A stretch of 59,064 nucleotides of DNA, the filler included. It is 3 parts of 3 records of this genome, joined end to end, with 100 filler letters (N's around TTAATTAATTAA, not from the genome) between each part and the next. Parts side by side here need not be neighbours in the genome. Positions count along the whole stretch, not along the records: positions 23,701 to 44,961 come from DRR723986_7701; 2 more parts are not named here. One strand, 5' to 3'. The notes under the pieces were generated by a model, which saw only the letters and a list, made by a program, of their open reading frames with translations, ran no database searches and was not told the origin of the DNA. Of this stretch, positions 28,883 through 59,064 are shown one piece after another; positions within the stretch are counted from its first letter, which is position 1, and each line of letters starts with the position of its first letter. Both the position numbers and the translations under genes were made by a program.

Positions 28883-31174
<2,292 letters not shown>

Positions 31175-31192
31175 TACAACAATAAAATTTGG

Positions 31193-31223
31193 AAAGCCAT
31201 CTGAGAAATCAGATGGCTTTTTT
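31193..31223 (+). terminator. Rho-independent terminator of icd
   Basis: AAAGCCATCTGA-GAAA-TCAGATGGCTTT followed by T-tract. Confidence 0.85.
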
Positions 31224-31339
31224 GCTTTACAGTCAACTGATATTTACTGTCTGTTTTGCCACTTAATCGCAAAAACATTACAGAGGTACATTGTCAAGAA
31301 ATTTTTAAGTAATATTTTCAAGCTTAACTTTTTAAAACA

Positions 31340-32086
31340 ATGCCAAAATCCATGATCAAAACTATACTTGTTGACGATGAGAAGCATGCAATAGAAACGC
31401 TTAAAATGCTTTTAGAGCAGCATTTTCCTCTAAAGTTTGATATCTGTGCGATGTGCAATTCAGTAGATCAGGCAATCCCAGCAATTCAAAAGCATGAGCC
31501 GGATTTAGTATTTTTGGACATACAGATGCCTCAAAAAAGCGGTTTTATGCTACTTGAGATATTTCCCCAACGTGATTTTGAAGTGGTATTTACTACGGCA
31601 CATAAGGATCACGCGCTTCCGGCATTTAAACATGCAGCTTTTGATTATTTACTTAAGCCTATTGATCCTGTAGAATTGCAAAAAACTATTGTTCGATTCG
31701 AGGAAAAAAGGAAGCCTAATTCCATTGAAGAAACCTTAGTGAGTATCAAACGACAAATTAGTTCTCACAATATCGTTGATCTAAATACCCAGGACACGGT
31801 AGAGTATGTGGATTTGAATGATATTCTATATCTCAAAGCGGATGGGAATTATACTGAATTTCACTTGGAAGGAGGAAAGAAATTGCTGCTTTCTAAACCG
31901 ATAGGACATTACAAAAAAAGGTTTGAGGAGAGTAATCTTTTTGTTCGAATCCATCATTCTTTCTTAGCAAACGCTACTAAATTTCTTCGCTATGACAAAA
32001 AAGAGGGATTTATGATGTTGAGAAATGGCGATAAAATTTCTGTTTCAGTCCGAAAGAGCTCTACGCTAACTAATGGATTTTATTAA
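31340..32086 (+). CDS. LytTR-family response regulator (REC plus LytTR)
   Basis: VDDE, FLDIQMP, TTAH, DYLLKP, ADGNYT, FVRIHHSF and VSVRK. Confidence 0.95.
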   Translation: MPKSMIKTILVDDEKHAIETLKMLLEQHFPLKFDICAMCNSVDQAIPAIQKHEPDLVFLDIQMPQKSGFMLLEIFPQRDFEVVFTTAHKDHALPAFKHAAFDYLLKPIDPVELQKTIVRFEEKRKPNSIEETLVSIKRQISSHNIVDLNTQDTVEYVDLNDILYLKADGNYTEFHLEGGKKLLLSKPIGHYKKRFEESNLFVRIHHSFLANATKFLRYDKKEGFMMLRNGDKISVSVRKSSTLTNGFY

Positions 32087-35063
32087 GATACTCTTCGTTG
32101 TTTTTTTACTGACTTTGAGTTTTACTTTTTCTACAGAAGCTCAGCAAATACCTTCGTTTAACCTTACCACAGCGGATGGCTTGCCAAACAATGCAATTCG
32201 ATCCCTGCTGGTAGACTCCAGAGGGATTTTGTGGGTCGGAACAGAAAATGGGGTGTCAAAGTTGGAGAGTGGAGTTTTTCAAAACTTTCATGAATCTGAG
32301 GGATTGGGCTTTAATAGCTGCTGGGCGATAGCAGAGGATAGTAATGGGAACATGTGGTTTGGTAGTTATGGGGGAGGTTTTTCGGTTTTTGACGGGAAAG
32401 AATTCCATGTGTTCACTGCAAAGAATGGTCTGGCCGATAATAGAATCCGTCATTTCTTTTCATATAAAAATATGATGCTAATAGGCACTGAAGACGGAAT
32501 TAGCATTGTTGATGTGGATACCTTTGAGATCTATTCGATCCCGGCAAGTATTCGTCAGAATGACTTGAATTTTACTTCAGGATTTTTTGAGATGGGGGAT
32601 AGGCTTTTTTATTCTACGTATAGAAATGGGAGCTATGAAATTATATGGGAAGATAAGGACCCTAAAATTCGAAAAGTTAATGAGTGGCTACCTATTTATT
32701 CTGTTTCTGTCCACAACGACAGTTTGCTACTCGCAGATAAAGGCTCAGTAAAGAAGATTGCTAAATCTGATTTTATCTCAGGAAAAACTCCCTCTCAAAC
32801 TTTTGGACAGTCAGTCGTATGGAAGAAAGTAGATGTCCTAAATGGGCGGAGTTATCTACTAGCAGCTAGTTTGTTTTCCAAAGATGGAGGTGTATTTCGA
32901 CTTGAAAATGATCGGATGGTCGACGCAAGTCAATGGTTTGGTGTTAGTTCAAAGTTTATTCTTAGTGGTGCCATAGACAAAAATCGAAATTTGTTGTACC
33001 TGGGGTCCCAAGATAAGGGCCTGTTTCAAATTCGTCTGGATGATATTATTGTTTATGAGGAATATGATGAGGCGGAAGTAAATGGAATTGCGGGAAGTGA
33101 AATTAAGCTGGGGCTCTTGAGTAATTTGGGATTGGAAATCAGAGACTCAAATGGTTCCAAAGTGAGGGTTGATCGAGGTGAATTTAAAAAGACCCAAGCT
33201 GATTTCTACAGAGATTTTCCTTCCAAAATCCCGCAACATATGGACGGTTTTTTTGAACTTGACCCAACTATATTACCAGAAGATATTGAGTTTTACCAAC
33301 TCCATTTTCAAGACAATTCCTACTGGATTAATACCAATATTGGAATCTTTCAGGTGGATTTGAATGGTCGATTTGTGACCTATTTGCCTGTTCATGCATT
33401 TAGTGTAGGTTTTACACCTGATGGGGAATTATTGGAAACAAACCCTTACGCAGGAGTTAGGATTTATTCCGATCCGAGAATCTTTGAATACACCTATTAT
33501 GAGCCTTCTATACCTTCCACTCCTTTGCAGATTTCAAAGGTAGCGACTGGGGAAAACCGTAGCTATTTGGCATCCGTTTTTCATGGCTTGTATCATTGGG
33601 ATGGCAATGGATTTTTTTCCTATAAAAATGAAGGTATCTGGGATGAGTCCAAATTCAAAACGCTTCACTACCTGAAAGAAGGAATGTTGTTGGCTGGGAC
33701 GGAGTTTGGAGATTTGTATCAAATTAGGACCAAACCTGAATTTGAAATAGTTAGGAAATGGCCAAATGAAGAGTTGCAGGGCAATTCGATCTTATTCATT
33801 GAATCTTATCAGGGTGTATTTTTGGTAGGAACGGAATTGGGTTTGCATATTTTAAGTGAAGGTGAGAATAGATTTTGGGCAGAGGGAATGGGCCAGTTTC
33901 AGCGAGTTTTCAAAAGTGCTAATAGAGTAGAAGATAAGTTGTATATAGGCTTGGATCGTGGGTTCTTTAGGATTAATCTTCCTGATTTGCTTACCCAAAA
34001 ATATCCTGCAATTGAATTGGCTATAACAGATCTAAAAGTAAACAGCAAATCGATCAATGTTGAAGATTTTAAGTGGTTTGCATATCAAGGAGAAAACTTG
34101 ACTCTAAAATCCAATGAGAATTCTTTGTTAATTCGCTTCAAGCCAATAGGTAATTTTAATGGAGGGAAACTTCGATATCATTACAGAATCAAATCAAATG
34201 CGGATTGGTCTGAGTTTAATGATGAGCCACTAATAGAACTTCCTTTTTTACCTTTTGGCAATTATAAGTTGGAAGTGGAGGTCTGGGATTATTTGTCGGG
34301 GAAGATGACAAAGGTTTCTTTACTCGAGTTTTCGATAGCGAAGCCCTACTATCTCAGTGTTTGGTTTATTTGTTTAATGATTTTTTTGGTTGGAGGAGTG
34401 TTTTTCGCGATTTACAGAACTAGGCTTAAGAGAATCCAAACCCAATCTCAACTCAGGCAACGACTTACCGAGATCAAGTTGGAAGCCTTGCAATCCCAGA
34501 TGAATCCCCACTTTACCTTCAATGCCATTAATAGTATTCAATATTATATCCTGAAAAATGATACTGCCCAGGCTCTGAGTTTTTTAGGGAAATTCAGCAA
34601 GCTGATACGAATTACGCTGGAGCAAAGTAGTAAGTCACAGGTTTCTCTGGAGGAGGAGATCATCTACCTCACTCAATACATAGAAGTGGAAAATACCCGA
34701 ATGGATAATCGGGTGAAGTGGGAGATCAAAGGAGATGCATTGGATAGCCAAAAGGAGATTATGATTCCACCCATGTTGATTCAGCCTTTGGTGGAGAATG
34801 TATTTGTACATGCATTTCCGGCAGAGCATCCAAATCCTGAATTGACCATTCTTTATGAAATAATATCTACCAATCAGTTGAGGTGCACTGTTCGGGACAA
34901 CGGCGAGGGTATGGGGCTGGGTTCCGAAAAAAGTCATGAGTCCAAAGGACTCAAAATGATCCGTGAAAAGCTGAGCTTGCTTCCGGGCTATACCTCAGAA
35001 AGCATTGTGGTAGAATCCAGCAATCAAGGCTACGAAGTAAGGATAAAGATTTTTTGCAGTTAA
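32073..35063 (+). CDS. LytS-type sensor histidine kinase with a periplasmic beta-propeller and Y_Y_Y-like domain
   Basis: Signal peptide, GLPNNAIRSL..DSRG.LWVGT repeats, TM near residue 770, SQMNPHFTFNAINSIQ H-box, QPLVEN, VRDNGEG. Confidence 0.93.
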   Translation: MDFIKILFVVFLLTLSFTFSTEAQQIPSFNLTTADGLPNNAIRSLLVDSRGILWVGTENGVSKLESGVFQNFHESEGLGFNSCWAIAEDSNGNMWFGSYGGGFSVFDGKEFHVFTAKNGLADNRIRHFFSYKNMMLIGTEDGISIVDVDTFEIYSIPASIRQNDLNFTSGFFEMGDRLFYSTYRNGSYEIIWEDKDPKIRKVNEWLPIYSVSVHNDSLLLADKGSVKKIAKSDFISGKTPSQTFGQSVVWKKVDVLNGRSYLLAASLFSKDGGVFRLENDRMVDASQWFGVSSKFILSGAIDKNRNLLYLGSQDKGLFQIRLDDIIVYEEYDEAEVNGIAGSEIKLGLLSNLGLEIRDSNGSKVRVDRGEFKKTQADFYRDFPSKIPQHMDGFFELDPTILPEDIEFYQLHFQDNSYWINTNIGIFQVDLNGRFVTYLPVHAFSVGFTPDGELLETNPYAGVRIYSDPRIFEYTYYEPSIPSTPLQISKVATGENRSYLASVFHGLYHWDGNGFFSYKNEGIWDESKFKTLHYLKEGMLLAGTEFGDLYQIRTKPEFEIVRKWPNEELQGNSILFIESYQGVFLVGTELGLHILSEGENRFWAEGMGQFQRVFKSANRVEDKLYIGLDRGFFRINLPDLLTQKYPAIELAITDLKVNSKSINVEDFKWFAYQGENLTLKSNENSLLIRFKPIGNFNGGKLRYHYRIKSNADWSEFNDEPLIELPFLPFGNYKLEVEVWDYLSGKMTKVSLLEFSIAKPYYLSVWFICLMIFLVGGVFFAIYRTRLKRIQTQSQLRQRLTEIKLEALQSQMNPHFTFNAINSIQYYILKNDTAQALSFLGKFSKLIRITLEQSSKSQVSLEEEIIYLTQYIEVENTRMDNRVKWEIKGDALDSQKEIMIPPMLIQPLVENVFVHAFPAEHPNPELTILYEIISTNQLRCTVRDNGEGMGLGSEKSHESKGLKMIREKLSLLPGYTSESIVVESSNQGYEVRIKIFCS

Positions 35064-35154
35064 GAAGCTACAGTTATGAAGTGATTTGGGGCGGGGGTGA
35101 ATTGGGGCCATAAAGTTGTTTTTTGATGGCTACTTTCAAATAAAAAAAACAGCT

Positions 35155-35301
35155 ATGGGGATCTTATCAAAAATTATAAAAGCTATATCAGGCGATTCGC
35201 TTCATTTATACGAAGGTAAAGGTGGAAGCTATTTAAAAACTGGTGGTTCTAAATCAGGAAGAAAGGGTAGGACATTAAGATTTAGTTGGTGGAAAAAATG
35301 A
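35155..35301 (+). CDS. Putative 48-aa cationic amphipathic peptide
   Basis: ATG after an A-rich leader typical of Bacteroidota; stop overlaps the next start (ATGA). Confidence 0.55.
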   Translation: MGILSKIIKAISGDSLHLYEGKGGSYLKTGGSKSGRKGRTLRFSWWKK

Positions 35302-35966
35302 GGTTTTGTAAATCGAAAAGAATCTTTTCGTTTCGATTTTTTTTCTTGTTTCTGGTGATATGCACTTCTTGTAATTCAAAGTCAATTTACGAGATAAGAT
35401 CAGCGGAATTAATAAGTCGTTACTCCGATTTAAGTGAAGGTGCATTGAGTGTGCTTTCTGAAGAGTCTTTTGATTTGTCTAAATCTGATTCTATTTGTAT
35501 TGAATTGAATAGGCTGAATGTTTTTTTATCTGCCGATTTGAATCGATTAGGACTGGAGTTCGGGCTTGATAGTGCTAGCGTAATAAAACCTAAATTATAT
35601 GAACTAGATAGGTTTAAGGATGATGTTGGAATGATCAATAGTTCAAATAAATCTGGGTTTTTAAATATGGTATCATACTTTTTCTTAGATTTTATCATTG
35701 TTGAGTTTATTGTTTTTTTGTTAATCCTATTATTAGGTATCGGAGCTACATCATTTAGACCGTTTGAGTTATATCAGCATGTGTCAGGTTTGTTAATTGT
35801 AATTGTTTTTGGGGCTTTTATAAGTATTGTTTTTGATCCAGTTCAAAGTTTTGGAGTCTATCAAACTAATGAAGATAATTACAGAGAATTTATTGTAGAA
35901 TTTAAAGAAGAGAGTTTTGGTTTTATGGAGGATATTGTCTCAAATAATTTAGACCTGATAAAATGA
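35298..35966 (+). CDS. Hypothetical lipoprotein with two internal TM helices
   Basis: Basic N-terminus, hydrophobic stretch and ICTSC lipobox-like motif; two long hydrophobic segments; ATGA overlaps at both ends. Confidence 0.7.
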   Translation: MRFCKSKRIFSFRFFFLFLVICTSCNSKSIYEIRSAELISRYSDLSEGALSVLSEESFDLSKSDSICIELNRLNVFLSADLNRLGLEFGLDSASVIKPKLYELDRFKDDVGMINSSNKSGFLNMVSYFFLDFIIVEFIVFLLILLLGIGATSFRPFELYQHVSGLLIVIVFGAFISIVFDPVQSFGVYQTNEDNYREFIVEFKEESFGFMEDIVSNNLDLIK

Positions 35967-36619
35967 AAAAAATTGCTTTAGTTCTTTCAGGTTCAATTTT
36001 AGGATTGTTGTTTTTTTTAAAAAAACCAGCAGTAGAGTTTTTAGAACGTTCGCCTAAGATTATTAAAAACATTATAGCGCCTGAACAGCAATCTATTATG
36101 GCTTTAGAAAATATTGGAACTCCAGTAGTTTCAATGGCAAAGTCAAATTTGGATGGGAATAGAAGCTATAGTGTTGCAAGACAAATTGCAGATAAATATT
36201 TGAAAGTTGAGAAAAGAAAAATTCATTCCAAAGGTTTAGTAAATGGAGGAGGGGAAGTTGTTAAACTTATAGATGGATATACGGGAGAAATATTGATTGG
36301 AGGGATGAAGTACGATTATGACCATATAATTAGTGTTAATCAATTATTTACAAGATACAAACATCTCTTAACTGATGAACAAATAGGCATGTTAGCAAAT
36401 GTGCCTGAAAATATAACCCCAACTATAAGAAGAGCTAATATATCAAAGAGCAACGTAGATGCTATCACATGGATGAACAAAGGAAATTCGATAGAAAAAT
36501 ATGGGATAAACCCTGAGTTACTAACTGAAAAATATAATGCTGCTTTAGAAGTTGTGTCAAAAGTGGCTGATAAAATGATAGAGAAAAATATTAGAGAGGG
36601 GATTATAAGTGTCAACTAA
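35963..36619 (+). CDS. Membrane-anchored or exported protein with an HNH-like (His-Me finger) domain
   Basis: N-terminal hydrophobic helix; DGYTG..YDYDHI..N.PENI..T.R..N.SK. Confidence 0.65.
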   Translation: MKKIALVLSGSILGLLFFLKKPAVEFLERSPKIIKNIIAPEQQSIMALENIGTPVVSMAKSNLDGNRSYSVARQIADKYLKVEKRKIHSKGLVNGGGEVVKLIDGYTGEILIGGMKYDYDHIISVNQLFTRYKHLLTDEQIGMLANVPENITPTIRRANISKSNVDAITWMNKGNSIEKYGINPELLTEKYNAALEVVSKVADKMIEKNIREGIISVN

Positions 36620-36757
36620 ATATCGGTTTCCTAACTAACCGTTTACATAGATAATAAATAAAGTGAATGCGCTTTTATTTCATGAATAAAAAAAGCCTTC
36701 CGCCACCCATCAGGCTCAAGCAAAGGAAAGCATGCTCCAGCGTTATAACATTTAACT

Positions 36758-37177
36758 ATGTCCAGACCATACCATCGTGGAGAAATCAATCGTGCCTTTG
36801 AGCGGGTGAAAGCCTTACTTCATTTTGATGCCATGCAGCGTGGAGGAGGCAGGGCTCGTTACATTGATTCCTATACAGGGGAAGAACTATGGGGTGGTGA
36901 TCGCTACGATTACGATCATATATTTCCTTCTGAGTTAATTCATACTCGCTATAAAGATAAACTTACAGATACGGAGATAGCTGAGATTGTAAATATTCCT
37001 GAGAATATTGCGGTGACGCTACGAAGTGTCAATCAGTCAAAAGGTAAAAAAGATCCCGAGCTCTGGATTCAGGATTCCAGATTGATTATATCCACAAAAA
37101 TTAAATTTGGTATTGCGGCTAAAGTCATAGAACGAGCCAAAATTGCTATAGAAAAGAAAGCTAGTCAGTTCTGTTGA
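36758..37177 (+). CDS. Small soluble HNH-like protein, paralog of 35963..36619
   Basis: DSYTG..YDYDHIFP..NIPENI..T.R..NQSKG..D...W; no signal sequence. Confidence 0.7.
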   Translation: MSRPYHRGEINRAFERVKALLHFDAMQRGGGRARYIDSYTGEELWGGDRYDYDHIFPSELIHTRYKDKLTDTEIAEIVNIPENIAVTLRSVNQSKGKKDPELWIQDSRLIISTKIKFGIAAKVIERAKIAIEKKASQFC

Positions 37178-37398
37178 TTTTCTGTCTTTTCTTACAATTA
37201 TGAAGATAATCTATCCACTTATGTGTTATTAATCCTTGCTCTGAAGTTTATGAATATACTTGTGGCTAGTTGGGAGTGACAATTCTCAATGCGTTAAGTA
37301 TTTTTTTAATATCGGACTTATTTCTAGGGGTGGAAATCTGTCCGATTTTTTTTGTTTAACACATAACCCGAAATCAAAATTCCGAAACCCGAATTGGC

Positions 37399-38271
37399 CT
37401 ATTCTTCCTCAAAACTCACATTATTCGCTCGCATAAATTCCTTAATCACCGAAACGTGAATGCATTCACCCAGATGGATAAATGCGTAATCATTCACCTT
37501 TTTTGCTTTGCCGTGGGCAATAATTGCTTTTTCCTCGATATCAAAACCCAGGTGTAAATGCTTGGTTCGGCTCTGCATCCCGCATACTTTTCCGCTGGCA
37601 TCAAATAGCGGACCGCCACTTTGTCCTCTTAGTCCAGGCGTACTCATTTCCATTCCATAGACTTTTCCTTTTTTATCTCCTAGAAAGCGAGTGAGCATTC
37701 CTTCGATCGGGAATCGAGGTGAGCGCATCGCTCCAGTGCTTGTCCATTCAAGAGATTGCTTTTGGGTGTTTAGCTGATAGTTTGAAAACTCAGGAAAAGG
37801 AAAACCGAGTCTGCACAACATCGCGCCGGGATTGATTTCGGCATGATCCTTCTTGAATTTTGGAACATTGGTGAATAGCGTTTTCTCAAAACCTTCAAAT
37901 TTGATCAAAGCCAGGTCGTATTCTGGATGAATAAAAAACCTCATGTTTTTGATCTGATCCACACAGTCTACAAAGGTTACCCGCATCTCGGAAGTAGCAT
38001 CGGGTTTTAAGCCTAGTTTTTTGGCTAAAGCAGAACGTTGTCCCCCGCTAAGATCTTTGCCTTGCTGTAAATAGTTGTTATACTTCTGGTTGATTTGATC
38101 TGCTTGAGATAGCCACTGAGCGACATGCTTGCAAGTCAGTGCATAGCCTTCTTGGTTTACAAAAAATAGCGTAGCAGCACCTCTTTCAATTTGAGTACTT
38201 CCAAAATTTCTGGAGATAGAATGAATCGCCCGGGTATAGCCGGCGGTTTCGAGAATTGCTTTTTCAAACAT
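37399..38271 (-). CDS. Trypsin-like (S1) serine protease without a signal peptide
   Basis: ALTCKHV (His), YDLALIK (Asp) and GQSGGPLF (Ser). Confidence 0.88.
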   Translation of the reverse strand: MFEKAILETAGYTRAIHSISRNFGSTQIERGAATLFFVNQEGYALTCKHVAQWLSQADQINQKYNNYLQQGKDLSGGQRSALAKKLGLKPDATSEMRVTFVDCVDQIKNMRFFIHPEYDLALIKFEGFEKTLFTNVPKFKKDHAEINPGAMLCRLGFPFPEFSNYQLNTQKQSLEWTSTGAMRSPRFPIEGMLTRFLGDKKGKVYGMEMSTPGLRGQSGGPLFDASGKVCGMQSRTKHLHLGFDIEEKAIIAHGKAKKVNDYAFIHLGECIHVSVIKEFMRANNVSFEEE

Positions 38272-38477
38272 TAAAAATTGCTTAAGTAAGGCTTCAAAAT
38301 AGGCAAAAGCATTGTAAAACTGATTTTTTCAAAATTTTTATGGAATTATTTTTCTTCGAAATCGATTGAATACAAGAAGATTTGACGAGCCTCAACAGAT
38401 AGTTTGGGCTAGCCAAATAAATGTAATAACTTAGCCATCCCTCAGGGATTTTTAGCCAAAAGTGGCATACCCGCTAA

Positions 38478-39524
<1,047 letters not shown>

Positions 39525-44961: not shown

Positions 44962-45061
44962 NNNNNNNNNNNNNNNNNNNNNNNNNNNNNNNNNNNNNNN
45001 NNNNNTTAATTAATTAANNNNNNNNNNNNNNNNNNNNNNNNNNNNNNNNNNNNNNNNNNNN
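44962..45061. other. Artificial contig-joining spacer
   Basis: Identical N44-TTAATTAATTAA-N44 linker; GC rises sharply after it. Confidence 0.97.
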
Positions 45062-45391
45062 TTCGACAACTTCAAGACCGCGCTGCACGTCGCCAGCGGC
45101 ATCGGGCAGGGTTTTGCCATGCTCGCGCGACAGGGCCTCGGCCAGTTTGTCCATGTCACGGTTCAGCAGATCGACCAGCTTCATCAACACCCGTGCGCGG
45201 CGCTGCGGGTTGGTTGCGGCCCATGCGGGCTGTGCGGCGGCGGCGTATTCAACCGCTTTGTCCAACTCTTCCTTGCTGGCCAGCGGGCATTTTGCCTGCA
45301 CTTCGCCGGTTGCGGGGTTCATCACATCAGCAAAACGGCCCGACGTGCCTTTGACGTGTTCACCGTTCAGATAGTGGGTAAGCTCTTGCAT
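45062..45391 (-). CDS. mmsA: CoA-acylating methylmalonate-semialdehyde dehydrogenase (N-terminal part only)
   Basis: NPATGEVQ, WAATNPQRRARV and EHGKT..DA.GDVQRGLEVVE; GGAGG RBS. Confidence 0.88.
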
Positions 45392-45465
45392 CATGTCCTC
45401 CATTGGCATTTGCCGCAGGATAGGCTTGCAAAAAGCCATGTAAAAGAGGCAAGATTTCAAAATGG

Positions 45466-45483
45466 TTTTGCAATTTTGCAAAA
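45466..45483. promoter_or_regulatory. Probable LysR recognition site between divergent mmsA and lysR
   Basis: TTTTGCA-ATTT-TGCAAAA inverted repeat containing T-N11-A. Confidence 0.55.
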
Positions 45484-45507
45484 CAATGTCTGAGAAAGGC
45501 CGCTGCT

Positions 45508-46401
45508 ATGCAAAACTGGGATGACCTGCGGCTGTTTCTGGCTGTCGCGCGGGAACAAAGCCTGTCCGGTGCGGGCAAACAACTGCGGCTTGATCCGGCC
45601 ACGCTGGGGAGGCGGGTTGCGCGGCTGGAAAAGGATCTGCAAGCCGCGTTGTTTGTGAAATCCCCGCAGGGCTATGCGCTGACCGAAGCGGGCGGACAGT
45701 TGATGGAGCGGGCCGAGGCGGCAGAGCAAGCCATGCGCGTGGCCCGCGCCGGTGTGTCCGCGCCCAGCGACCGGTTGAGCGGACAAATTCGGATCGGTGC
45801 GCCCGACGGTTGTGCCAATTTCCTGCTGCCGCAGGTCTGCGCGGGGATCGTCGCCGAAAACCCCGGTCTGGATATTCAAATCGTGGCATTGCCTCGAGTG
45901 TTCAATCTGTCGCGCCGCGAGGCAGATATGGCCATCGGGGTCAGCGCCCCGACCGCCGGGCGGTTGGTTGTGCAAAAGATCACCGATTATCACCTGCATC
46001 TGGCGGCCTCCGCCCAGTATTTGCAGGCCCATCCCAAAATCACCGAACAGGCGGATCTGCAATCGCACCGTTTGGTGGGCTATATCCCCGATATGATCTT
46101 TGACCGCGAGCTGGACTACCTTGGCGATCTGGGCGAGGCGCGTGTGCCATTGGCGTCCAACTCCGTCTCCGTGCAGGTGCATATGATCCAGCAGGGCGGC
46201 GGCGTTGGGGTGGTGCATGATTTCTCGCTGCCCTTTGCGCCGGGGGTTCAGAAGATCCTGGAACAGGAGGTCAGCCTGACACGGTCCTTTTACCTGATCC
46301 GCCACGCGGATGATCAACGTAACCTGAGATTGAGCCGCTTTGCCGATCAGTTGATCACCGCCCTGCGCTCTGAGGTCGCAGCGCTTGAGGCAAAAGCTTG
46401 A
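45508..46401 (+). CDS. LysR family transcriptional regulator
   Basis: NWDDLRLFLAVAR..SLS.A HTH, LTEAG, LSRREAD; divergent from mmsA. Confidence 0.95.
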   Translation: MQNWDDLRLFLAVAREQSLSGAGKQLRLDPATLGRRVARLEKDLQAALFVKSPQGYALTEAGGQLMERAEAAEQAMRVARAGVSAPSDRLSGQIRIGAPDGCANFLLPQVCAGIVAENPGLDIQIVALPRVFNLSRREADMAIGVSAPTAGRLVVQKITDYHLHLAASAQYLQAHPKITEQADLQSHRLVGYIPDMIFDRELDYLGDLGEARVPLASNSVSVQVHMIQQGGGVGVVHDFSLPFAPGVQKILEQEVSLTRSFYLIRHADDQRNLRLSRFADQLITALRSEVAALEAKA

Positions 46402-46459
46402 CTCAATTGCCCAATCTGGTGACGCTGGGGGCAGGGATGAATTAATTGGAGGTCCTGCC

Positions 46460-46894
46460 ATGCTGGTGTCACAAATTCTCAAGACCAAACCTGACGATGC
46501 GGTGGTGACGTCCCCCCCAAGTTTATTGATCTCCGAAGCGGCCAAGATCCTGTCCGAAAAACGCATCGGTACATTGGTGATTTCCAAGGATGGCAAATCC
46601 CCTGATGGCATCTTGTCGGAACGTGACATCGTGCGCGAGCTGGGCAAATCCGGCAGTGGCTGCCTGACCCTGACCGTGGACAAATTGATGACCTCCAAGC
46701 TGGTCACCTGTTCGCGTGATGATCGCGCCGATGAGGTTCTGCAAAAGATGACCGAAGGGCGGTTCCGCCACATGCCGGTGCTTGAAGACGGCAATCTGGT
46801 TGGCTTGATCTCGCTTGGCGATGTGGTCAAGGCGCGGTTGATGGAACTGTCGATGGAAAAAGACGCCCTGCAAGGGATGATCATGGGGCATTAA
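46460..46894 (+). CDS. CBS-domain pair protein
   Basis: GILSERDIVR, M...RFRHMPV and GLISLGDVVK; GGAGG RBS before ATG 46460. Confidence 0.93.
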   Translation: MLVSQILKTKPDDAVVTSPPSLLISEAAKILSEKRIGTLVISKDGKSPDGILSERDIVRELGKSGSGCLTLTVDKLMTSKLVTCSRDDRADEVLQKMTEGRFRHMPVLEDGNLVGLISLGDVVKARLMELSMEKDALQGMIMGH

Positions 46895-46960
46895 GCCGCT
46901 TGCGCCTTTGGGCAAGCCATGTTTGCTTGCCCGCCAAAGATTCTAACTGAGGACCACCTC

Positions 46961-47461
46961 ATGCGCGTTGGCCTGTATCCCGGCACTTTCGATCCCATCA
47001 CATTGGGCCATATTGATATTATTCGCCGCGCGACGACGTTGGTGGACAAGCTGGTGATCGGGGTTGCGATCAACCGCGACAAGGGGCCGCTGTTCAGTCT
47101 GGAAAAGCGGGTCGAGATGATCGAGGCCGAATGCGCAGAGCTGAGCCGCCAAACCGGGGTTGAGATTGTCGCCCATCCGTTTGAGAACCTGCTGATTGAT
47201 TGCGCCCGCGATGTGGGCGCCCAGATGATCGTGCGCGGCCTGCGGGCGGTGGCGGATTTTGAGTATGAATATCAGATGGTTGGCATGAACCGCCAGCTTG
47301 ATAACTCCATCGAGACGGTGTTCCTGATGGCCGAGGCGCAGCATCAGGCGATCGCCAGCAAGCTGGTCAAAGAGATCGCCCGCCTTGACGGCGACGTCAG
47401 CAAATTTGTTACGCCGAGCGTGAACAAAGACCTGCTGGAAAAGTTCCCGCGAGAGGGTTAA
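46961..47461 (+). CDS. coaD: Phosphopantetheine adenylyltransferase
   Basis: YPGTFDPITLGH and RGLRAVADFEYE. Confidence 0.98.
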   Translation: MRVGLYPGTFDPITLGHIDIIRRATTLVDKLVIGVAINRDKGPLFSLEKRVEMIEAECAELSRQTGVEIVAHPFENLLIDCARDVGAQMIVRGLRAVADFEYEYQMVGMNRQLDNSIETVFLMAEAQHQAIASKLVKEIARLDGDVSKFVTPSVNKDLLEKFPREG

Positions 47462-47506
47462 CCGCCCCGGTACAGGGGGGCGGCGCGGCACCTTTGGAGG
47501 CTGGGC

Positions 47507-48508
47507 CTACAGATAGCCCGCCATCACACTGGCGGTGTCCAGCATCCGGTTCGAGAACGCCCATTCATTGTCATACCACGCCAGCACGCGCAGCAGATTG
47601 CCCTGCTGCACAGAAGTCTGATCGCTGGCAAAGATCGTGCTGCGCGGATCGTGGTTGAAATCAATCGACACCAATTTGCGGTCAGTGACGCCCATCACAC
47701 CCGCCAATGGCCCATCTGCGGCGGCCTGCATCGCGGCGTTCACCTCTTCGGCGGTCACATCGGTGTTCAGTTCCACCACCAGATCCACGCAAGACACATT
47801 CGGCGTCGGCACGCGGATTGCCGTGCCGGTGATCAACCCGTCCAGATGCGGCAGAACCACACCCAATGTCTCGGCCGCGCCAGTGGTGGTCGGGATCATC
47901 GACAGCGCCGCGGCGCGTGCACGGTACAGGTCTTTGTGGTCGCGGTCATGCACCGGCTGGGTGCCGGTATAGCTGTGCACGGTGGTCATATGGCCGCGCT
48001 GAATGCCAAAGGCCTCATGCAGGGCATGGGCCAGGGGTGCCAGACAATTGGTGGTGCAGGAGGCATTGCTGATCACCGCCTCAGTGCCGTCGATAAGCCC
48101 GTGATTCACCCCGTAAACAATTGTTTTTATGTCACCTTTGCCGGGGGCAGAGATCAACACCCGCTTTGATCCGTTCCTCAGATGCAGCCCGGCCTTTTCC
48201 GGTGTGCGGAAATGTCCGGTGCATTCCAGCACAATATCCACATCCCCCCAGGGCAGCTGATCCGGCGCCCGTTCCGCCGTGACCCGGATCGGCCCGCGCC
48301 CCACATCCAGCGTGTTCTCGCCAAGGGTGACGGGGCGGCCATAGCGGCCATGCACGGAATCAAATTCAAACAGATGCGCGTTGGTTTCCAGCGGGGCCAG
48401 ATCATTGATCGCCACCACCTCAAACATATCATCGCCGCGGTCCATGATCGCCCGCAGCACATTGCGCCCGATGCGGCCAAAGCCGTTGATCGCCAGTTTC
48501 ACAGTCAT
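47507..48508 (-). CDS. gap: Type I glyceraldehyde-3-phosphate dehydrogenase paralog (INDL type)
   Basis: [25 protein letters not shown] and WYDNEWAFS. Confidence 0.95.
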   Translation of the reverse strand: MTVKLAINGFGRIGRNVLRAIMDRGDDMFEVVAINDLAPLETNAHLFEFDSVHGRYGRPVTLGENTLDVGRGPIRVTAERAPDQLPWGDVDIVLECTGHFRTPEKAGLHLRNGSKRVLISAPGKGDIKTIVYGVNHGLIDGTEAVISNASCTTNCLAPLAHALHEAFGIQRGHMTTVHSYTGTQPVHDRDHKDLYRARAAALSMIPTTTGAAETLGVVLPHLDGLITGTAIRVPTPNVSCVDLVVELNTDVTAEEVNAAMQAAADGPLAGVMGVTDRKLVSIDFNHDPRSTIFASDQTSVQQGNLLRVLAWYDNEWAFSNRMLDTASVMAGYL

Positions 48509-48632
48509 GGCATCACCTTTTGATCAAATTATCTGTGCTGAAAATGCGCTCTTGCGGCGCAGTGTCAACGCCTTGAGAGGGAATAAAAAGTACCGATACA
48601 ATGTTCTGCGATGCAGCAATCGCCGGAGGGCG

Positions 48633-48776
48633 TCAGCGCCAGAAGGCGATCCACTCAATCAGTTCTGTGAATTTTTTGGCAAGGAAAACAACATGCTCAG
48701 TGCCAAACAGGATCATATCAATCACCAAAGCGGCGATCAGCAATGACCCCAGAATGATGGCAAGGCGGTTTGTCAC
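48633..48776 (-). CDS. 47-aa small membrane protein (below the ORF-track cutoff)
   Basis: Hand translation from GTG: MTNRLAIILGSLLIAALVIDMILFGTEHVVFLAKKFTELIEWIAFWR; co-oriented between the two gap genes. Confidence 0.75.
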   Translation of the reverse strand: MTNRLAIILGSLLIAALVIDMILFGTEHVVFLAKKFTELIEWIAFWR

Positions 48777-48836
48777 GTCGTATTCGTCCAAATGATGCGC
48801 CCCCGATATGACAGGGGCACATCATGGATGCAAGGA

Positions 48837-49838
48837 TCAGCCCAACTGGCCCATCGCAACTGCCACATCGGCCATGCGCACCGAAAATGCCCATTCGTTG
48901 TCATACCAGCCCAACACCCGCACGGTGCGGTCGGCCACAACAATGGTCTGATCGGGCGCAAAGATGCAGGATTCTTCGGTGTGGTTGAAGTCGATGCTGA
49001 CTTTCTGTTCCGGGTCATAGCCCAGCACACCTTTCATATGCCCCTCTGCAGCGGCCTTGGCGGCGGCGTTGACCTCTTCGACGGTCACATCGCGCGAGGC
49101 GGTGAAGGTCAGATCAACCGCGCTGACGTTTGGCGTGGGCACGCGCATCGCGGTGCCGTCCAGCTTGCCCTTGAGGGCAGGCAGAACTTCACCCAGCGCT
49201 TTGGCGGCACCGGTGGAGGTGGGGATCAGCGCCATCGCCGCGGCGCGCGCGCGGTAAAGGTCGGAATGGCGCCGGTCCAGCGTCGGCTGATCGCCGGTGT
49301 AGCTGTGGATCGTGGTCATCAGCCCGCTTTCGATGCCGATCGCCTCATGCATCACTTTGGCAAGCGGGGCGAGGCAATTGGTGGTGCAGGACCCGTTGGA
49401 AATCATCCGGTCCGAGGCTTGCAGCGTGTCGTGATTGACGCCGTAAACCACTGTGCGGTCTACGTTTTTGCCCGGCGCGGACAACAAAACCCGCTTGGCA
49501 CCCTGTTCCAGATGCACACCGGCCTTGTTGCCGTCGTTGAACTTGCCGGTGCATTCCAGAACCACGTCACAGCCGGACCAGTCGAGTTCTTCGAGGTTAT
49601 AGGTCGACATCACTTCGATGTCGTTGCGGCCCAGATTGATGTAACCGTCATCCACCGTGATCTCGCCCGGAAAACGGCCATGAACGGAATCATACTTGAT
49701 CAGATGCGCCGCCGTGGACAGCGGCCCGGTGGCGTTGATCTTGACCACTTCGATATCTTCACGCGCAGAGGCGGAGATATGGCTTAGCGTGCAACGGCCA
49801 ATCCGGCCAAATCCGTTAATACCAACTTTGATGGTCAT
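48837..49838 (-). CDS. gap: Type I glyceraldehyde-3-phosphate dehydrogenase paralog (INAT type)
   Basis: [28 protein letters not shown] and WYDNEWAFS. Confidence 0.95.
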   Translation of the reverse strand: MTIKVGINGFGRIGRCTLSHISASAREDIEVVKINATGPLSTAAHLIKYDSVHGRFPGEITVDDGYINLGRNDIEVMSTYNLEELDWSGCDVVLECTGKFNDGNKAGVHLEQGAKRVLLSAPGKNVDRTVVYGVNHDTLQASDRMISNGSCTTNCLAPLAKVMHEAIGIESGLMTTIHSYTGDQPTLDRRHSDLYRARAAAMALIPTSTGAAKALGEVLPALKGKLDGTAMRVPTPNVSAVDLTFTASRDVTVEEVNAAAKAAAEGHMKGVLGYDPEQKVSIDFNHTEESCIFAPDQTIVVADRTVRVLGWYDNEWAFSVRMADVAVAMGQLG

Positions 49839-49924
49839 GGCGGCAATCCTTTATGGGGGCTTTGGGCGCTCTATATCTGGGGCTTGCCCAAAGGTTAAAG
49901 GGGCAATTCGGCCTGATAAGGGAC

Positions 49925-49957
49925 TGTTAGCGATAAACTTTTGTGTTAGCGATAACC
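49925..49957. promoter_or_regulatory. Two LacI-family (CceR-like) operator sites upstream of gap
   Basis: TGTTAGCGATAA twice, 19 bp apart; the second copy is a GTT-N6-AAC palindrome. Confidence 0.65.
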
Positions 49958-50019
49958 CAGAGGTTTTGCCAGGGGCGGTTTCCGCGCTAGCTTGGGCAGG
50001 TAACAAGAAGGATGGGGTT

Positions 50020-50994
50020 ATGAGTGGTCTGATTGCATTGCTGGACGATGTGGCAGCGATTGCCAAAGTGGCGGCATCGTCGGTGGATGATGTGATCGGG
50101 CAAGCGGCCAAGGCCGGGTCCAAGGCCGCAGGCGCAGTGATTGATGATGCGGCAGTGACGCCCAAATATGTGCAGGGGTTCGAGGCCAGCCGCGAACTGC
50201 CGGTGATCTGGCGGATCACCAAGGGATCGTTACGCAACAAGCTGTTGTTTCTGCTGCCCGTTGGCCTTGCCCTGTCAAACTTTGCCCCATGGGCCATTCC
50301 ACCGCTCTTGATGCTGGGCGGGGCCTACCTGTGTTTTGAGGGGGCGGAAAAGGTCGCTCATGCGCTGGGGCTCAGCCACGGGCACGAAGATTTCCCCGGC
50401 CATGACGTTATCCCAGATGATCCCGCCCATCTGGAAGAGCAGAAAGCCGCCGGGGCAATCAAGACCGATTTCATCCTTTCGGCTGAGATCATGACCATCG
50501 CCTTGGCCGCCATCCCGCCCAGCAATTTCTGGATGGAGGCCGCGACGCTGGCGGCGGTGGCCGTAATGATCACGGTTGCGGTCTATGGCTCGGTTGCGGT
50601 GATCGTCAAAATGGACGATCTGGGCCTTTGGATGGCCAACAAGGGGCGGCTGGGGCTGACCCGCACCATCGGGCGCGGGTTGGTCAAAGGGATGCCCAGC
50701 TTTTTGAAAACGCTCACAATTGTAGGCACCGCCGCGATGCTTTGGGTGGGCGGATCCATCATCATCCACGGGCTTGAAGAGCTGGGCTTTGGCACGTTAG
50801 GCCACTGGGTGCATGACGCGGCCTATGCCATTGGGCACAGCATGCATGACCGGTTTGTCGGGATCGTTGAATGGGCATCAAAGGCCGTGATGGACGGGGT
50901 GTTTGGTCTGGCGCTGGGGCTGATCCTGATCCCCATCGGGGAAAAGGTGATTACACCGCTTTGGCGTGGGATTTTTCACCGCCGCGCGGCGTAA
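50020..50994 (+). CDS. DUF808 (YedI-like) inner membrane protein
   Basis: GLIALLDDVA, IDDAAVTP.YV, RELPVIW, GAIKTDFILSAEIM and VGTAAMLWVGG. Confidence 0.93.
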   Translation: MSGLIALLDDVAAIAKVAASSVDDVIGQAAKAGSKAAGAVIDDAAVTPKYVQGFEASRELPVIWRITKGSLRNKLLFLLPVGLALSNFAPWAIPPLLMLGGAYLCFEGAEKVAHALGLSHGHEDFPGHDVIPDDPAHLEEQKAAGAIKTDFILSAEIMTIALAAIPPSNFWMEAATLAAVAVMITVAVYGSVAVIVKMDDLGLWMANKGRLGLTRTIGRGLVKGMPSFLKTLTIVGTAAMLWVGGSIIIHGLEELGFGTLGHWVHDAAYAIGHSMHDRFVGIVEWASKAVMDGVFGLALGLILIPIGEKVITPLWRGIFHRRAA

Positions 50995-51166
50995 CCGCCC
51001 GGCGCTGGCTGCGCAGATAGGCCAGACAAATCACGGATATCATCACCAGTTGGCCGACCAGAACGGCCAACCCAAACGCGCCCGCCGCAGAGCCGCCATT
51101 GGCCAGATGATAGAGACCGAACGCAAGGCCAGACATCATTGCAATCAAGAGATAAGCAATCGCCAC
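50951..51166 (-). CDS. Small two-TM hypothetical protein
   Basis: GTG after a GAAAGGA RBS; two hydrophobic helices; 3' end overlaps the convergent DUF808 gene. Confidence 0.5.
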   Translation of the reverse strand: MAIAYLLIAMMSGLAFGLYHLANGGSAAGAFGLAVLVGQLVMISVICLAYLRSQRRAVTPRGGEKSHAKAV

Positions 51167-51335
51167 AGTTGTCCTTTCCCATCCGTTTTGCAGCCAGAAT
51201 AAACCGATCCAGAATAACAACTCGTTAACTCTTACTGCCACAACCCTAAGTTACACAGCGCACATTGCAACAGATTTGTGCCGCTTTGAAAAATTGCGCA
51301 GTTTCCTGCTGTCAAAACAGTGGAGATAGGCAAGA

Positions 51336-51369
51336 AAAACCCCGCCTGATACCAATCAGACGGGGTTTT
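51336..51369 (-). terminator. Terminator downstream of tkt
   Basis: AAAACCCCGCCTGAT-ACCA-ATCAGACGGGGTTTT. Confidence 0.8.
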
Positions 51370-51393
51370 GATTTTACGTTTGTGTCTGGTGGC

Positions 51394-53409
51394 TTACAGC
51401 AGCGCCTTGGCCTTTTCGGCAACATTGGCAGCCGTGATGCCGAACTTTTCAAACAGCTCTTCTGCCGGGGCGGAGGCGCCAAAACGATCCATGCCCACAA
51501 AATCGGCCTTACCGAACTTGCCGCGCTCGCCCAGCAGCCACTGATCCCAGCCCTGACGGACACCGGCCTCAACGCCGACACGTACCGCGCCGCCGGGCAG
51601 AACCCGCTTGCGATAGGCTTCGTCCTGCTCTGCGAACAGCTCCATGCAGGGCATGGACACAACCCGCACGCCAATGCCTTCGGCTTGGAGCAGGTCACGC
51701 GCTGCCAAGGCGACCGACACTTCGGAACCGGATGCGATCAGGATCACCTGACGTTTGCCTTCGGCATCGGCCAGAACATAGGCCCCTTTGGAGGACAGGT
51801 TGTTGTTCTTATGCTCGGTCCGCACGGTCGGCAGCCCCTGACGGGTCAGGGACAGAACCGATGGCGTTTCTTTGGATGTCAGCGCGATTTCCCATGCCTC
51901 TGCGGTTTCCACGGTGTCCGCGGGGCGGAACACATAGGTGTTGGGTGTCGCGCGGCTGATCGCGAGATGTTCAACCGGCTGGTGCGTCGGGCCATCCTCG
52001 CCCAGACCAATGCTGTCATGGGTCATCACAAACACTGTTGGCACTTTCATCAAGGCCGCAAGACGCATGGAAGGGCGCGCATAATCGGTAAAGCACATGA
52101 ATGTACCGCCATAGGGACGCACACCGCCGTGCAGCGCCATGCCGTTCATCGCGGCGGCCATGCCATGCTCGCGAATACCCCAGTAGACATAACGCCCACC
52201 GCGGTTGTCCACGTCAAACACACCCAGATCGGCGGTTTTGGTGTTGTTGGAGCCGGTCAGATCAGCCGAGCCGCCAACCGTTTCAGGCAGGATCGGGTTC
52301 AGCACCTCCAGAACCTTTTCCGAAGAGGCGCGGGTGGCCAGTTTGGGCGCGGCTTCTGACATCTGCTTTTTGAACGCCTTAACCGTCGCGCTCAGCTTTT
52401 TGGGCGCGTCGAAGGCCAGTGCACGGGTGAAATTCTCGCGCTTGGCACGGGGCAGGGCCTCAAAACGGGCCTCCCATGCGGCGCGGTCTTCTGCGCCGCG
52501 CTTGCCGATCTCTTCCCACGCGGATTTCACATCGGCAGGCACTTCGAACGGGCCGGTTGTCCAGCCGTATGCCTCTTTCGCGGCAGCCATCTGTGCGGGA
52601 TCGGTCAATGCGCCGTGACCCTTGGAGGTGTCCTGCGCCGCGTGGCCAAGGGCGATGTGGGTTTTGCAGGCGATCATGCTGGGCAGATCGGATTTGCGGG
52701 CTTCGGTCAGCGCCGCGTCAATCTCATCGGGGTTGTGCCCGTCGATCTCAATCGTGTGCCAACCTGCGGCCTTGAAACGCGCAACCTGATCGGTGCTGTC
52801 AGACAGAGTTACCGGACCGTCAATGGTGATGTTGTTGTTGTCCCACATCACGATCAGCTTGCTCAGCTTGTGACGGCCCGCAAGGGTGATCGCCTCCTGG
52901 CTCACACCTTCCATCAGGCAGCCGTCACCGGCGATGACATAGGTGAAGTGATCCACAACCTTTTTGCCATAGCGGGCGCGTTGGATTTCTTCAGCCATGG
53001 CAAAGCCGACGGAGTTGGCGATGCCCTGACCCAGCGGGCCAGTGGTGGTTTCAATCGCATCCGCGAGGAAGTTTTCCGGGTGGCCGGCGGTGCGGGCGCC
53101 CATCTGGCGGAAGTTCTTGATCTCTTCGATCGGGAACTGCACGTCGCCGACAAGATGCAACAGCGCATAAATCAGCATGGAGCCGTGACCCGCAGACAGG
53201 ATGAACCGGTCGCGGTCGGGCCATGTGGGGGTGGCCGCATCAAACTTCAGGTGCTTTTCGAACAAGACGGTAGCGACATCGGCCATGCCCATGGGCATGC
53301 CGGAATGGCCGGAGTTTGCTTCGGCCACAGCATCCAGCGTCAGGGCGCGAATGGCGGTGGCTTTTGACCAATGGTCAGGGTTGGCGGTGCGCAGGGCGTT
53401 GAGATCCAA
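51394..53409 (-). CDS. tkt: Transketolase
   Basis: [39 protein letters not shown] and GEDGPTHQP. Confidence 0.99.
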
Positions 53410-53680
53410 AACGGGGCTTCCTTATCAGGCAATGGACGTGTTGCGCCCGTGCATACCAGCGATGGGGCAAAGTTCAAGCCAAAGCCAAGCGCATTGGCGC
53501 GTTCGGCGCGCAAGGTGGTTGAACTTCGCCGTTCAAGCTGCTGATCTGAAAGGGGGGCGCAATTGCCCGGCAGTTTGGGTAGGATCAAGAAAATATGTCT
53601 CACCGGGCGATTCGCGCGTGGATCGGCGGCCAATTGCGGGCCTGCCCCGGTGAAAGCAGATGAGGGGATGATAAACGGCT

Positions 53681-55775: not shown

Positions 55776-55779
55776 CAGA

Positions 55780-56121: not shown

Positions 56122-56125
56122 CGGA

Positions 56126-58626: not shown

Positions 58627-59064
<438 letters not shown>

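Follow-up and report, generated by a model that had tools for sequence, protein, structure and literature searches.

A two-component sensor and a nuclease-like gene frame an exchanged cargo slot in Algoriphagus, a possible site of conflict or defence

We examined a six-gene locus (positions 31340 to 37177) within a 59,064-nt stretch of DNA, here called the window, whose source is an Algoriphagus close to A. winogradskyi. The locus encodes a LytTR response regulator (RR) and sensor histidine kinase (HK) forming a two-component system (TCS), a 48-aa cationic peptide, a 222-aa orphan envelope protein, and two HNH-like proteins, P5 and P6. An earlier reading made from the sequence alone had taken the six genes to be one horizontally acquired cassette. 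Comparison with related genomes shows instead that a vertically inherited frame, RR and HK at the 5' side and P6 at the 3' side, encloses a slot, and that Algoriphagus lineages have exchanged what the slot contains; the single-cassette reading fails because the contents between HK and P6 differ while the frame genes are syntenic. On balance we lean, by a modest measure, towards reading this composite locus as a regulated conflict or defence slot swapped by recombination, with its role in antagonism or defence being what we infer from sequence comparisons.

The gene order nitrilase-icd-RR-HK-...-P6-protease-gapdh was retained in seven Algoriphagus loci examined by tblastn (L001, L003, L005, L006, L007, L008, and L011), among which the HK-P6 interval of 1.4-1.7 kb varied. 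This cargo consisted of an IIGP-like GTPase and an 83-aa Cys-rich protein in L001 and L007, of 176-aa and 191-aa proteins with a Cys-rich gene in L005 and L011, of a three-gene set including a P-loop protein with a Cys-rich gene in L006 and L008, and of an RCC1-repeat lipoprotein in L003. The window's peptide, 222-aa protein, and P5 were present in none of the seven. The interval between icd and the protease, which the sequence-only reading had proposed comparing in close relatives, thus has a variable middle, but RR, HK, P6, and the protease around it are conserved. Its proposal of horizontal acquisition holds for the AT-rich stretch from 35106 to 36700, which is replaced relative to A. winogradskyi, but not for those four syntenic genes. 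The low GC content of the stretch, previously judged by eye, was borne out by measurement: at 31.2% GC, 35106-36702 is the lowest of all 1597-nt windows across the 59 kb, only 0.09% of which reach so low a value, compared with 36% in RR, 39% in HK, 41% in P6, and 43% in the protease (36-45% for adjacent genes overall). In all seven relatives the cargo was likewise AT-richer than HK (GC 0.29-0.34 vs 0.39-0.43).

We took A. winogradskyi (genome G001, locus L001) as the centre of comparison, its proteins being 96-99.7% identical to those of the window in the flanks. DNA similarity between the two ends at 35105, 42 nt past the HK stop codon, and restarts at about 36697-36703, so that the window insert stands where A. 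winogradskyi has its GTPase gene and most of the gene for the 83-aa Cys-rich protein. At the right breakpoint, 36698-36748 reads FRHPSGSSKGKHAPAL followed by a stop, which are the last 16 codons and stop of the 83-aa gene; because the resumed similarity begins inside these codons, the gene was truncated by the swap. On the left side, HK is 99-100% identical to its L001 counterpart up to about 33500 and then 77-98% identical per 150 nt up to its stop codon. The 3' third of HK is therefore mosaic, and the replaced tract extends into it, running from about 33.5 kb to 36.7 kb and comprising a diverged 3' part of HK together with the 1.6 kb of AT-rich cargo gained. A tract reaching into HK points to homologous recombination, the donor having carried the same frame. 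No integrase was found among the neighbouring genes, and the repeats in 34900-37400 were short, at chance level, and supported no cassette-type attachment sites, which sets the locus apart from integron-like or site-specific cassette arrays. A 13-nt direct repeat (TACAGTTATGAAG / TACAATTATGAAG) at 35069-35081 and 37193-37205 brackets the cargo and P6; the pair is present in L001, altered in L003, and not found in L005-L011, and another copy resembling it runs across the stop codon of HK. An artefact of assembly does not explain the cargo, because matching short contigs occur in two seawater metagenome DNA runs; no RNA run was among those listed as containing cargo sequence. These runs contain 0.21 and 0.13 of the sampled cargo words, and their contigs have 0-1 differences from parts of the cargo and flanks, with no junction bridged.

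Cargo type does not follow species relatedness. L006 and L011 have HKs that are 86% identical, different cargo, and P6 proteins that are just 65% identical, while the cargos of L001 and L007 are 79% identical and their HKs 64% identical. The 83-aa protein is 88% identical between L001 and L007, above both HK (64%) and P6 (68%). This protein (L001:9740-9991 and relatives) contains a tandem Cys-x2-Cys ... Cys-x2-His unit, reached by Pfam C2H2 below threshold only, and probably forms two small zinc-binding modules. Since its gene is destroyed in the window and absent from several frames, P6 does not need it as an antidote. In A. aquimarinus (L003:10001-10387) P6 itself is apparently broken (tblastn residues 11-138 at 78%, longest open reading frame (ORF) 61 aa), and this locus also has no Cys-rich gene.

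Scanning one genome per species, we found relatives of P6 encoded at 54 Bacteroidota loci, whose ORFs were clustered and searched with profiles, counting as upstream those on the same strand. A common layout recurs in Cyclobacteriaceae and Flavobacteriaceae: a regulator, small DUF6140 or Cys-rich genes, variable cargo, and P6. A WYL-domain protein lies upstream of P6 in 24 of the 54 loci and this kinase in 16, with one or the other in 39 (37 of the 48 loci in which the upstream sequence extends for 5 kb or more). The small genes upstream of P6 encode DUF6140 (24/54), a 52-aa Cys-rich protein (cys52, 13/54), or the 83-aa Cys-rich protein (cys83, 10/54), and 37 loci have a gene of one of these types. 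TCS-type loci are mostly from Cyclobacteriaceae and WYL-type loci mostly from Flavobacteriaceae; in the window the TCS occupies the regulator position, and the stretch 26758-47177 gave no match to the WYL profile. Some frames are empty, reading RR-HK-P6 (L037), RR-HK-DUF6140-P6 (L013), WYL-cys52-P6 (L017 and L023), or WYL-P6 (L048 and L050), and in L046, L048, and L049 cargo is positioned after P6. In six loci (L022, L028, L029, L030, L035, and L041, at about 10980-11000) a second WYL gene follows about 600 nt past P6 on the same strand, which suggests frames in tandem. The protease cluster comprises the window and eight Algoriphagus loci, with no member from the remaining 46, placing the protease outside the frame beyond Algoriphagus.

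Pfam assigned dynamin, IIGP, or septin/AIG1-type GTPase domains, or the general GTPase domain MMR_HSR1, to 10 of 50 cargo representatives, and the remainder include HerA, EcsC, FRG, TPR, VWA, or RCC1 proteins. At E<=1e-5, PADLOC models matched 14 of 49 cargo proteins, many by GTPase-domain similarity alone, including matches to PDC-S29 (2e-88), PDC-S15 (4e-38), mad8/HerA (3.5e-23), LeoBC (2e-17), and PDC-M40B. One recurrent cargo is a three-gene set in 10 of the 54 loci (L006, L008, L024, L026, L032, L038, L039, L047, L049, and L051; e.g. L026:8128-9980), whose products measure about 215 aa (a P-loop protein, its Walker A motif recognised by inspection), 150 aa, and 247 aa, with no Pfam match at E<=1e-3 and no PADLOC match at E<=1e-5. 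Several loci sit in defence-rich neighbourhoods, and the Algoriphagus flanks are housekeeping genes. In some loci from Flavobacteriaceae, the sequence a few kb past P6 contains bona fide defence genes, including the C-terminal part of Avs2 (L040:14370-15365, 2e-110), a type I restriction enzyme (L026:17078-19993, 1e-298), and an MkoA-like helicase (L047:15240-17510, 3e-29).

The frame's two ends are also linked across genomes. Among 401 sampled Cyclobacteriaceae genomes, P6 (E<=1e-10) was present in 18 and the kinase (E<=1e-80) in 25, with both in 17. In nine of these 17 the two genes share a contig and are no more than 10 kb apart, and in one they are 322 kb apart; in four they are on separate contigs with less than 2.1 kb between the kinase and the end of its contig, which cuts the kinase short in two cases, and in the last three, also on separate contigs, the pair consists of a divergent P6-like copy (two genomes) or a weak partial kinase match at 29% identity (one). 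In five of five genomes from five genera, the sole full-length kinase homologue adjoins P6, while four of five WYL-type genomes have no full-length kinase orthologue and the fifth has its kinase 29 kb from P6. The linkage also occurs in Flavobacteriaceae with other outer flanks (L037 and L044). We conclude that kinase-P6 linkage is strong but not exclusive. In L062 (genome G061, closely related to the L015 genome), the kinase directly precedes the genes that in L015 come after P6 (97-99% identical), so the DUF6140-cargo-P6 block is wholly absent there.

P5 and P6 had been read as paralogous HNH-like proteins, and homology, motif, and modelled fold agree. The two are 45% identical over 86 aa (E 3e-24). 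P6 has close homologues from Algoriphagus (98% identity to A. winogradskyi; 30 proteins at E<=1e-3 among 39 candidates). A word-indexed search with P5 gave no match among 337 candidates, and its relatives were found by profile search. The family is small: of 1.84 billion cluster representatives, a P5+P6 profile reached just 110 at E<=1e-3. Its members take four forms, namely stand-alone proteins (about 140 aa), proteins whose N-terminus is of lipoprotein type (about 200 aa), proteins with an N-terminal domain, membrane helix, and OmpA domain, and PDC-M40B-like proteins of 520-570 aa. No P6-family member was confirmed among 74 pattern matches in IMG/VR viral contigs. The AlphaFold2 (AF2) model of P6 has a pLDDT of 90.4; that of P5 has a pLDDT of 74.5, with a confident domain at residues 60-218, in a layout of N-terminal hydrophobic helix, disordered linker, and His-Me-finger domain. 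In VIA comparisons the best match of P6 was V. cholerae endonuclease I (2vnd, Z 8.4, 115 aligned, rmsd 3.5), followed by Cas9 HNH (Z 5.3-5.8), Gme HNH, McrA, BrxU, and T5 SciA; P5 matched endonuclease I (2vnd, Z 5.8) and Gme HNH (4h9d, Z 5.0). Nine of the top ten Foldseek rows were Cas9 HNH domains with weak scores. In P6 numbering, no variation was seen at H54, N79, N83, N92, or K95 across the 23 aligned sequences, among them P5; E82 is likewise invariant in the 23, and position 53 is Asp in 21 and Glu in two. P5 retains D120-H121, N146, N150, N159, and K162. This D-H...N...N...K motif would supply the His general base and the Asn/metal ligands expected of the superfamily. Among curated Pfam profiles, HNH_4 (0.032), GmrSD_C (0.073), and GH-E (0.22) all fell below their cut-offs; P5 matched no Pfam HNH profile, NCBIfam matched neither protein, and sequence-profile comparison with solved structures in the PDB gave chance-level results (E >=0.14). 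We therefore assign P5 and P6 as predicted His-Me-finger (HNH-type) nucleases, with moderate rather than strong support.

In a quick tree of 64 rows, from which cluster members shorter than 100 aa were dropped, P5 pairs with P0031 (SH-aLRT 95) within a seven-row set of lipoprotein-type and OmpA-fused forms, on a very long branch, and a 55-row set (SH-aLRT 96) holds all P6 genes of the loci. Because the tree puts P5 outside the P6 set, P5 is an imported distant paralogue and not a tandem duplicate.

Endonuclease I limits transformation and degrades DNA in Vibrio. As it is the top fold match of both proteins, the locus might serve nutrition or control of DNA uptake, the kinase sensing an extracellular polymer while P5 in the envelope and P6 inside the cell degrade extracellular or incoming DNA as a nutrient or to limit transformation. 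The lipoprotein signals of one subfamily, the OmpA fusion of another, and the kinase orthologues that adjoin GH43 genes in two genomes fit such a role. It leaves unexplained the turnover of GTPase, HerA, EcsC, and FRG cargo and the WYL regulators, P6 itself has no export signal, and P6 is so sparse (18/401 family genomes) that its distribution is unlike that of a core nutritional function. We consider this explanation improbable.

The other two insert genes are orphans. The peptide is cationic, as first noted (11 K/R vs 2 D/E, net charge about +9), with an amphipathic N-terminus by inspection; it belongs to no Pfam, NCBIfam, or PADLOC family, had no usable Atlas match, has no GG-type leader by inspection, and failed a homology test against a 58-aa ORF in L005 (E 0.085). 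The 222-aa protein likewise belongs to no Pfam, NCBIfam, or PADLOC family, was matched in none of the 401 Cyclobacteriaceae genomes, and reached Atlas scores of 0.84 at most. Its N-terminal hydrophobic segment with Cys22 and Cys25 accords with the lipoprotein label it had been given, but two later hydrophobic helices do not, and lipoprotein identity is only plausible. Two metagenome loci (L056, which begins with a WYL gene, and L057) encode a 247-aa protein immediately 5' of a P5-like lipoprotein. These proteins have a lipoprotein signal and membrane helices, a layout like that of the 222-aa protein, with which they share no detectable homology (BLASTP E 0.4; hhalign probability 0.6%). Complex prediction for the 222-aa protein with P5 scored 0.00, which is evidence for neither side.

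LytTR regulators control bacteriocin loci in Firmicutes, and the insert could accordingly be imagined as a weapon against other bacteria, with a LytTR-induced, membrane-active cationic peptide, P5 as an exported nuclease toxin, and the 222-aa protein as immunity or export helper. The charge and amphipathic N-terminus of the peptide, the N-terminal hydrophobic helix of P5, the lipoprotein signals of its closest relatives, and a best fold match to a periplasmic or extracellular nuclease are what one would expect of such a system. The six genes, however, include no double-glycine leader, C39-peptidase ABC exporter, type IX secretion C-terminal domain, or type VI secretion or polymorphic-toxin marker; P6 has no signal peptide; the slot of relatives holds cytoplasmic GTPases, HerA, EcsC, and FRG proteins; and the kinase is not of the peptide-pheromone type. 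Interbacterial antagonism seems to us, by a hair, less probable still than a role in DNA uptake.

The assignment of a LytTR two-component system was confirmed with Pfam: RR contains PF00072 Response_reg (2.4e-19, residues 9-117) and PF04397 LytTR (1e-11, residues 155-243), both above cut-offs, and is 98.8% identical to its A. winogradskyi counterpart and present in the seven Algoriphagus loci. HK contains PF06580 His_kinase (3.9e-21, above cut-off), with HATPase_c matching just at 0.0041, below cut-off. Its N-terminus is signal-like, and its N-terminal 760 residues contain Reg_prop (1.3e-12) and Y_Y_Y (4.9e-05) repeats and one hydrophobic span, so that a large extracytoplasmic part precedes the His_kinase and ATPase regions. 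Neither Pfam nor inspection found a polytopic LytS/AgrC-like sensor (5TM-Lyt or peptide receptor) in HK.

The non-coding element between the HK stop codon and the cargo contains ACAGTTATG..TTTGGGGCGG..GTGAATTGG, and similarity to the closest relative stops at its last base. Related sequence follows the HK stop codon in all eight Algoriphagus loci, whatever their cargo, and we regard the element as a candidate regulated promoter or operator. A sigma-70-type promoter scan gave 23 matches vs 22.3 in shuffled sequence, and a Bacteroidota promoter pattern gave two matches vs 1.85 expected, none within the locus; no promoter was definable from these scans. At the upstream border of the locus, the icd hairpin, GCCATCTGA-GAAA-TCAGATGGC with a T run, is conserved in L001 and L005, and was not listed by the terminator scanner.

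From these elements a working scheme can be drawn for the preferred reading, a regulated conflict or defence slot. The kinase would sense an extracytoplasmic signal, and the LytTR regulator would activate a promoter in the conserved 42-nt element past the HK stop codon, from which cargo and P6 would be transcribed jointly. The cargo modules may be interchangeable conflict modules, most likely directed against phage or foreign DNA; that of the window would comprise the envelope-anchored nuclease P5 and a membrane partner, with P6 acting as a shared cytoplasmic nuclease output.

The most serious competitor to this scheme, though in our view an unlikely one, is a neutral recombination hotspot, in which an ordinary and probably glycan-sensing TCS has its own regulon, P6 is unrelated to it, and foreign AT-rich genes accumulate and turn over without shared regulation or function. 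In Bacteroidota, sensors of the Reg_prop/Y_Y_Y kind typically belong to carbohydrate-sensing systems, and the kinase occurs without P6 in 8 of 25 genomes; at six of seven such loci it is followed by unrelated genes (GH43, FAD oxidoreductase) or by opposite-strand genes, and at the seventh the contig ends after a cys83 gene. These kinases without P6 fit glycan sensing for its own ends. The cargo is heterogeneous, 27 of its 50 representatives having no Pfam family, and is not enriched in PADLOC matches over the flanks, since a control set of 49 ORFs, each standing for one cluster and situated 3 kb or more past P6, was matched at a similar rate (9/49 vs 14/49); as these ORFs include defence genes, they make an imperfect negative control. 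Several further observations weigh, together with these, against a conflict or defence slot. Neither regulator was found in the available stretch of 12 of the 54 loci, four of which have less than 2.1 kb of upstream sequence, and the linkage counts are not phylogenetically independent, because the TCS-type and WYL-type loci split largely by family. The window cargo has no homologue of known role. The fold matches are moderate, with a best Foldseek E of 0.037 and just one VIA Z above 8. A LytTR box was not definable, its motif counts being at chance level (ACAGTTATG with one mismatch, 10 observed vs 9.6 expected; TGTGAATTGG with two mismatches, 58 observed vs 74 expected).

A neutral hotspot, on the other hand, does not account for the kinase being present in 17 of 18 P6 genomes and adjacent in at least nine, for the persistence of this linkage in Flavobacteriaceae with different outer flanks, for empty frames that put the regulator directly beside P6, or for a WYL regulator in the equivalent position in 24 loci. 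The genes are also all co-oriented, with overlapping or short junctions, as the sequence-only reading had described: RR and HK overlap by 14 nt, and two ATGA overlaps follow, one between the peptide stop and the ATG at 35298, the other between the stop codon 35964-35966 and the ATG at 35963. That reading had named a core TCS with randomly assorted cargo as an outcome that would count against it. The TCS is core and the cargo varies, which bears this out in part, but the assortment is not random: the cargo occupies a frame that recurs and ends in P6, a gene linked to the kinase orthogroup.

A bolder extension, which we offer as tentative, is that the locus represents a plug-in immune dock of Bacteroidota, in which a fixed chassis (an envelope-sensing kinase with LytTR regulator, or WYL; DUF6140 or Zn-ribbon proteins; and a His-Me-finger nuclease) would receive at least 15 unrelated, GTPase-rich conflict modules swapped by homologous recombination.

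We compared the locus with described systems. Core defence hotspots and defence islands have variable content flanked by conserved genes, and the slot resembles them in its fixed position, conserved borders, and strain-variable, AT-rich, horizontally exchanged content. It differs in that the borders of the P6 frame are not housekeeping genes and travel with the slot into other contexts across genera, and in that one border is a dedicated sensor system. Agr/Blp/Com-type loci share with the window a LytTR response regulator near a small peptide gene, but the window's kinase is a propeller/Y_Y_Y sensor and not a polytopic peptide receptor, the phylum is Bacteroidota, and there is no exporter or leader peptide (no ABC_tran or Peptidase_C39 match in Pfam among seven proteins). 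The same absences set the window apart from class II bacteriocin-type loci controlled by LytTR regulators. P5 and P6 resemble endonuclease I (Vvn/EndA/Dns) and Cas9-type HNH domains in modelled fold and D-H...N...N...K motif (VIA Z 4-6 vs Cas9 HNH and 5 vs Gme HNH), but have an extra helical insert between the hairpin and the Asn helix.

As first supposed, the locus is not a named system: PADLOC-DB 2.0 contained no full named system matching the window interval. Both P5 (1.4e-6) and P6 (8.2e-5) matched the N-terminal region of PDC-M40B, and P6 matched the C-terminal part of HEC-05 (2e-4), so a nuclease-like domain is shared with these proteins; the matches are at domain level only, P5 and P6 having 218 and 139 aa vs 547 and 600 aa, and no PDC-M40A partner was found. 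Further domain-level PADLOC matches linked the REC domain to PDC-M60B/SduA and the protease to RT-Protease_XI, and there was no match at all for HK, the peptide, or the 222-aa protein.

WYL regulators of the BrxR/CapW type are found beside phage defence systems of many kinds (Picton et al., 2022, PMC9122601). Loci of this type resemble the P6 loci in having a conserved regulator upstream of changing defence-type cargo, a WYL gene being in that place in 24 of 54 P6 loci. The window differs in having a LytTR TCS instead of a WYL gene, and P6 loci differ in ending in a conserved nuclease-like gene and carrying DUF6140 or Cys-rich small genes; the passages searched in that paper do not mention Bacteroidetes, HNH, or GTPase. 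GTPase-centric conflict systems (Kaur, Burroughs, Iyer, and Aravind, 2020, PMC7159879) resemble the cargos of relatives, which are dominated by TRAFAC-type GTPases, often with Zn-ribbon and membrane components, in Bacteroidota. The window cargo itself has no GTPase, and neither LytTR nor two-component is mentioned in the text of that paper. A literature search returned no published description of the architecture, nor of DUF6140, PDC-M40, or a LytTR two-component system in an anti-phage context. The differences from these known kinds lie in the two-component sensor in the regulator position, in the conserved gene of His-Me-finger type that ends the frame, and in the small genes for DUF6140 or Cys-rich proteins.

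All six ORFs were confirmed on the + strand, co-oriented between the icd terminator and a convergent protease (Table 1). Rfam gave no match in 30500-39000, and no tRNA gene was found in the window. GC content, about 0.40-0.46 before, is raised to 0.58-0.64 from about 46 kb to the end of the window. The match to the A. winogradskyi genome, at 98% similarity, stops near 44962, and the remaining 14 kb is unmatched there. The stretch 44963-59064 is either a high-GC island of foreign origin or a chimera produced in assembly or binning.

Table 1. Features of the locus and its borders, in window coordinates.
Feature	Position	Strand	Evidence or remark
icd terminator hairpin and T run	31196-31223	+	Upstream border of the locus; read in sequence
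Response regulator (RR)	31340-32086	+	REC and LytTR DNA-binding domains; genus-core
Sensor histidine kinase (HK)	32073-35063	+	Pfam matches
Conserved non-coding element, left edge of slot	35064-35105	+	Alignment of Algoriphagus loci
Strain-specific AT-rich cargo	35106-36697	+	blastn, alignment breakpoints, GC statistics
48-aa cationic ORF (peptide)	35155-35301	+	Orphan; reality as a gene uncertain
222-aa orphan envelope protein	35298-35966	+	Signal or lipobox-like N-terminal segment, soluble part, two hydrophobic helices
P5, 218 aa, predicted His-Me-finger (HNH-type) domain	35963-36619	+	AF2 model, VIA fold matches
3' remnant of 83-aa Cys-rich gene	36698-36748	+	DNA alignment with L001, L005, and L007; reading of sequence
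P6, 139 aa, His-Me-finger (HNH-type) nuclease-like	36758-37177	+	AF2 model; final conserved gene of the frame
Terminator-like hairpin and T run between convergent P6 and protease	37328-37351	+	Consensus scan only
Trypsin-like serine peptidase, 290 aa	37399-38271	-	Pfam Trypsin_2 2.3e-09; genus-core neighbour

Should the locus turn out to be a mere recombination hotspot, the reading of six genes as one cassette is still corrected, and an allelic exchange of cassettes is documented with exact breakpoints. If it is a regulated conflict or defence slot, defence genes would stand under a two-component sensor of the cell envelope and not under a cytoplasmic WYL or DNA-damage sensor, and the inducing signal would become testable. 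If the dock reading is true, it would provide the first case of a defence hotspot coupled to such a sensor, and the three cargo products of the window (peptide, membrane protein, and exported nuclease) would constitute a new type of module acting on incoming DNA at the envelope. The P6 family, together with its regulator, would then offer a handle for mining defence and conflict systems in marine Bacteroidota, a phylum in which they are thinly catalogued.

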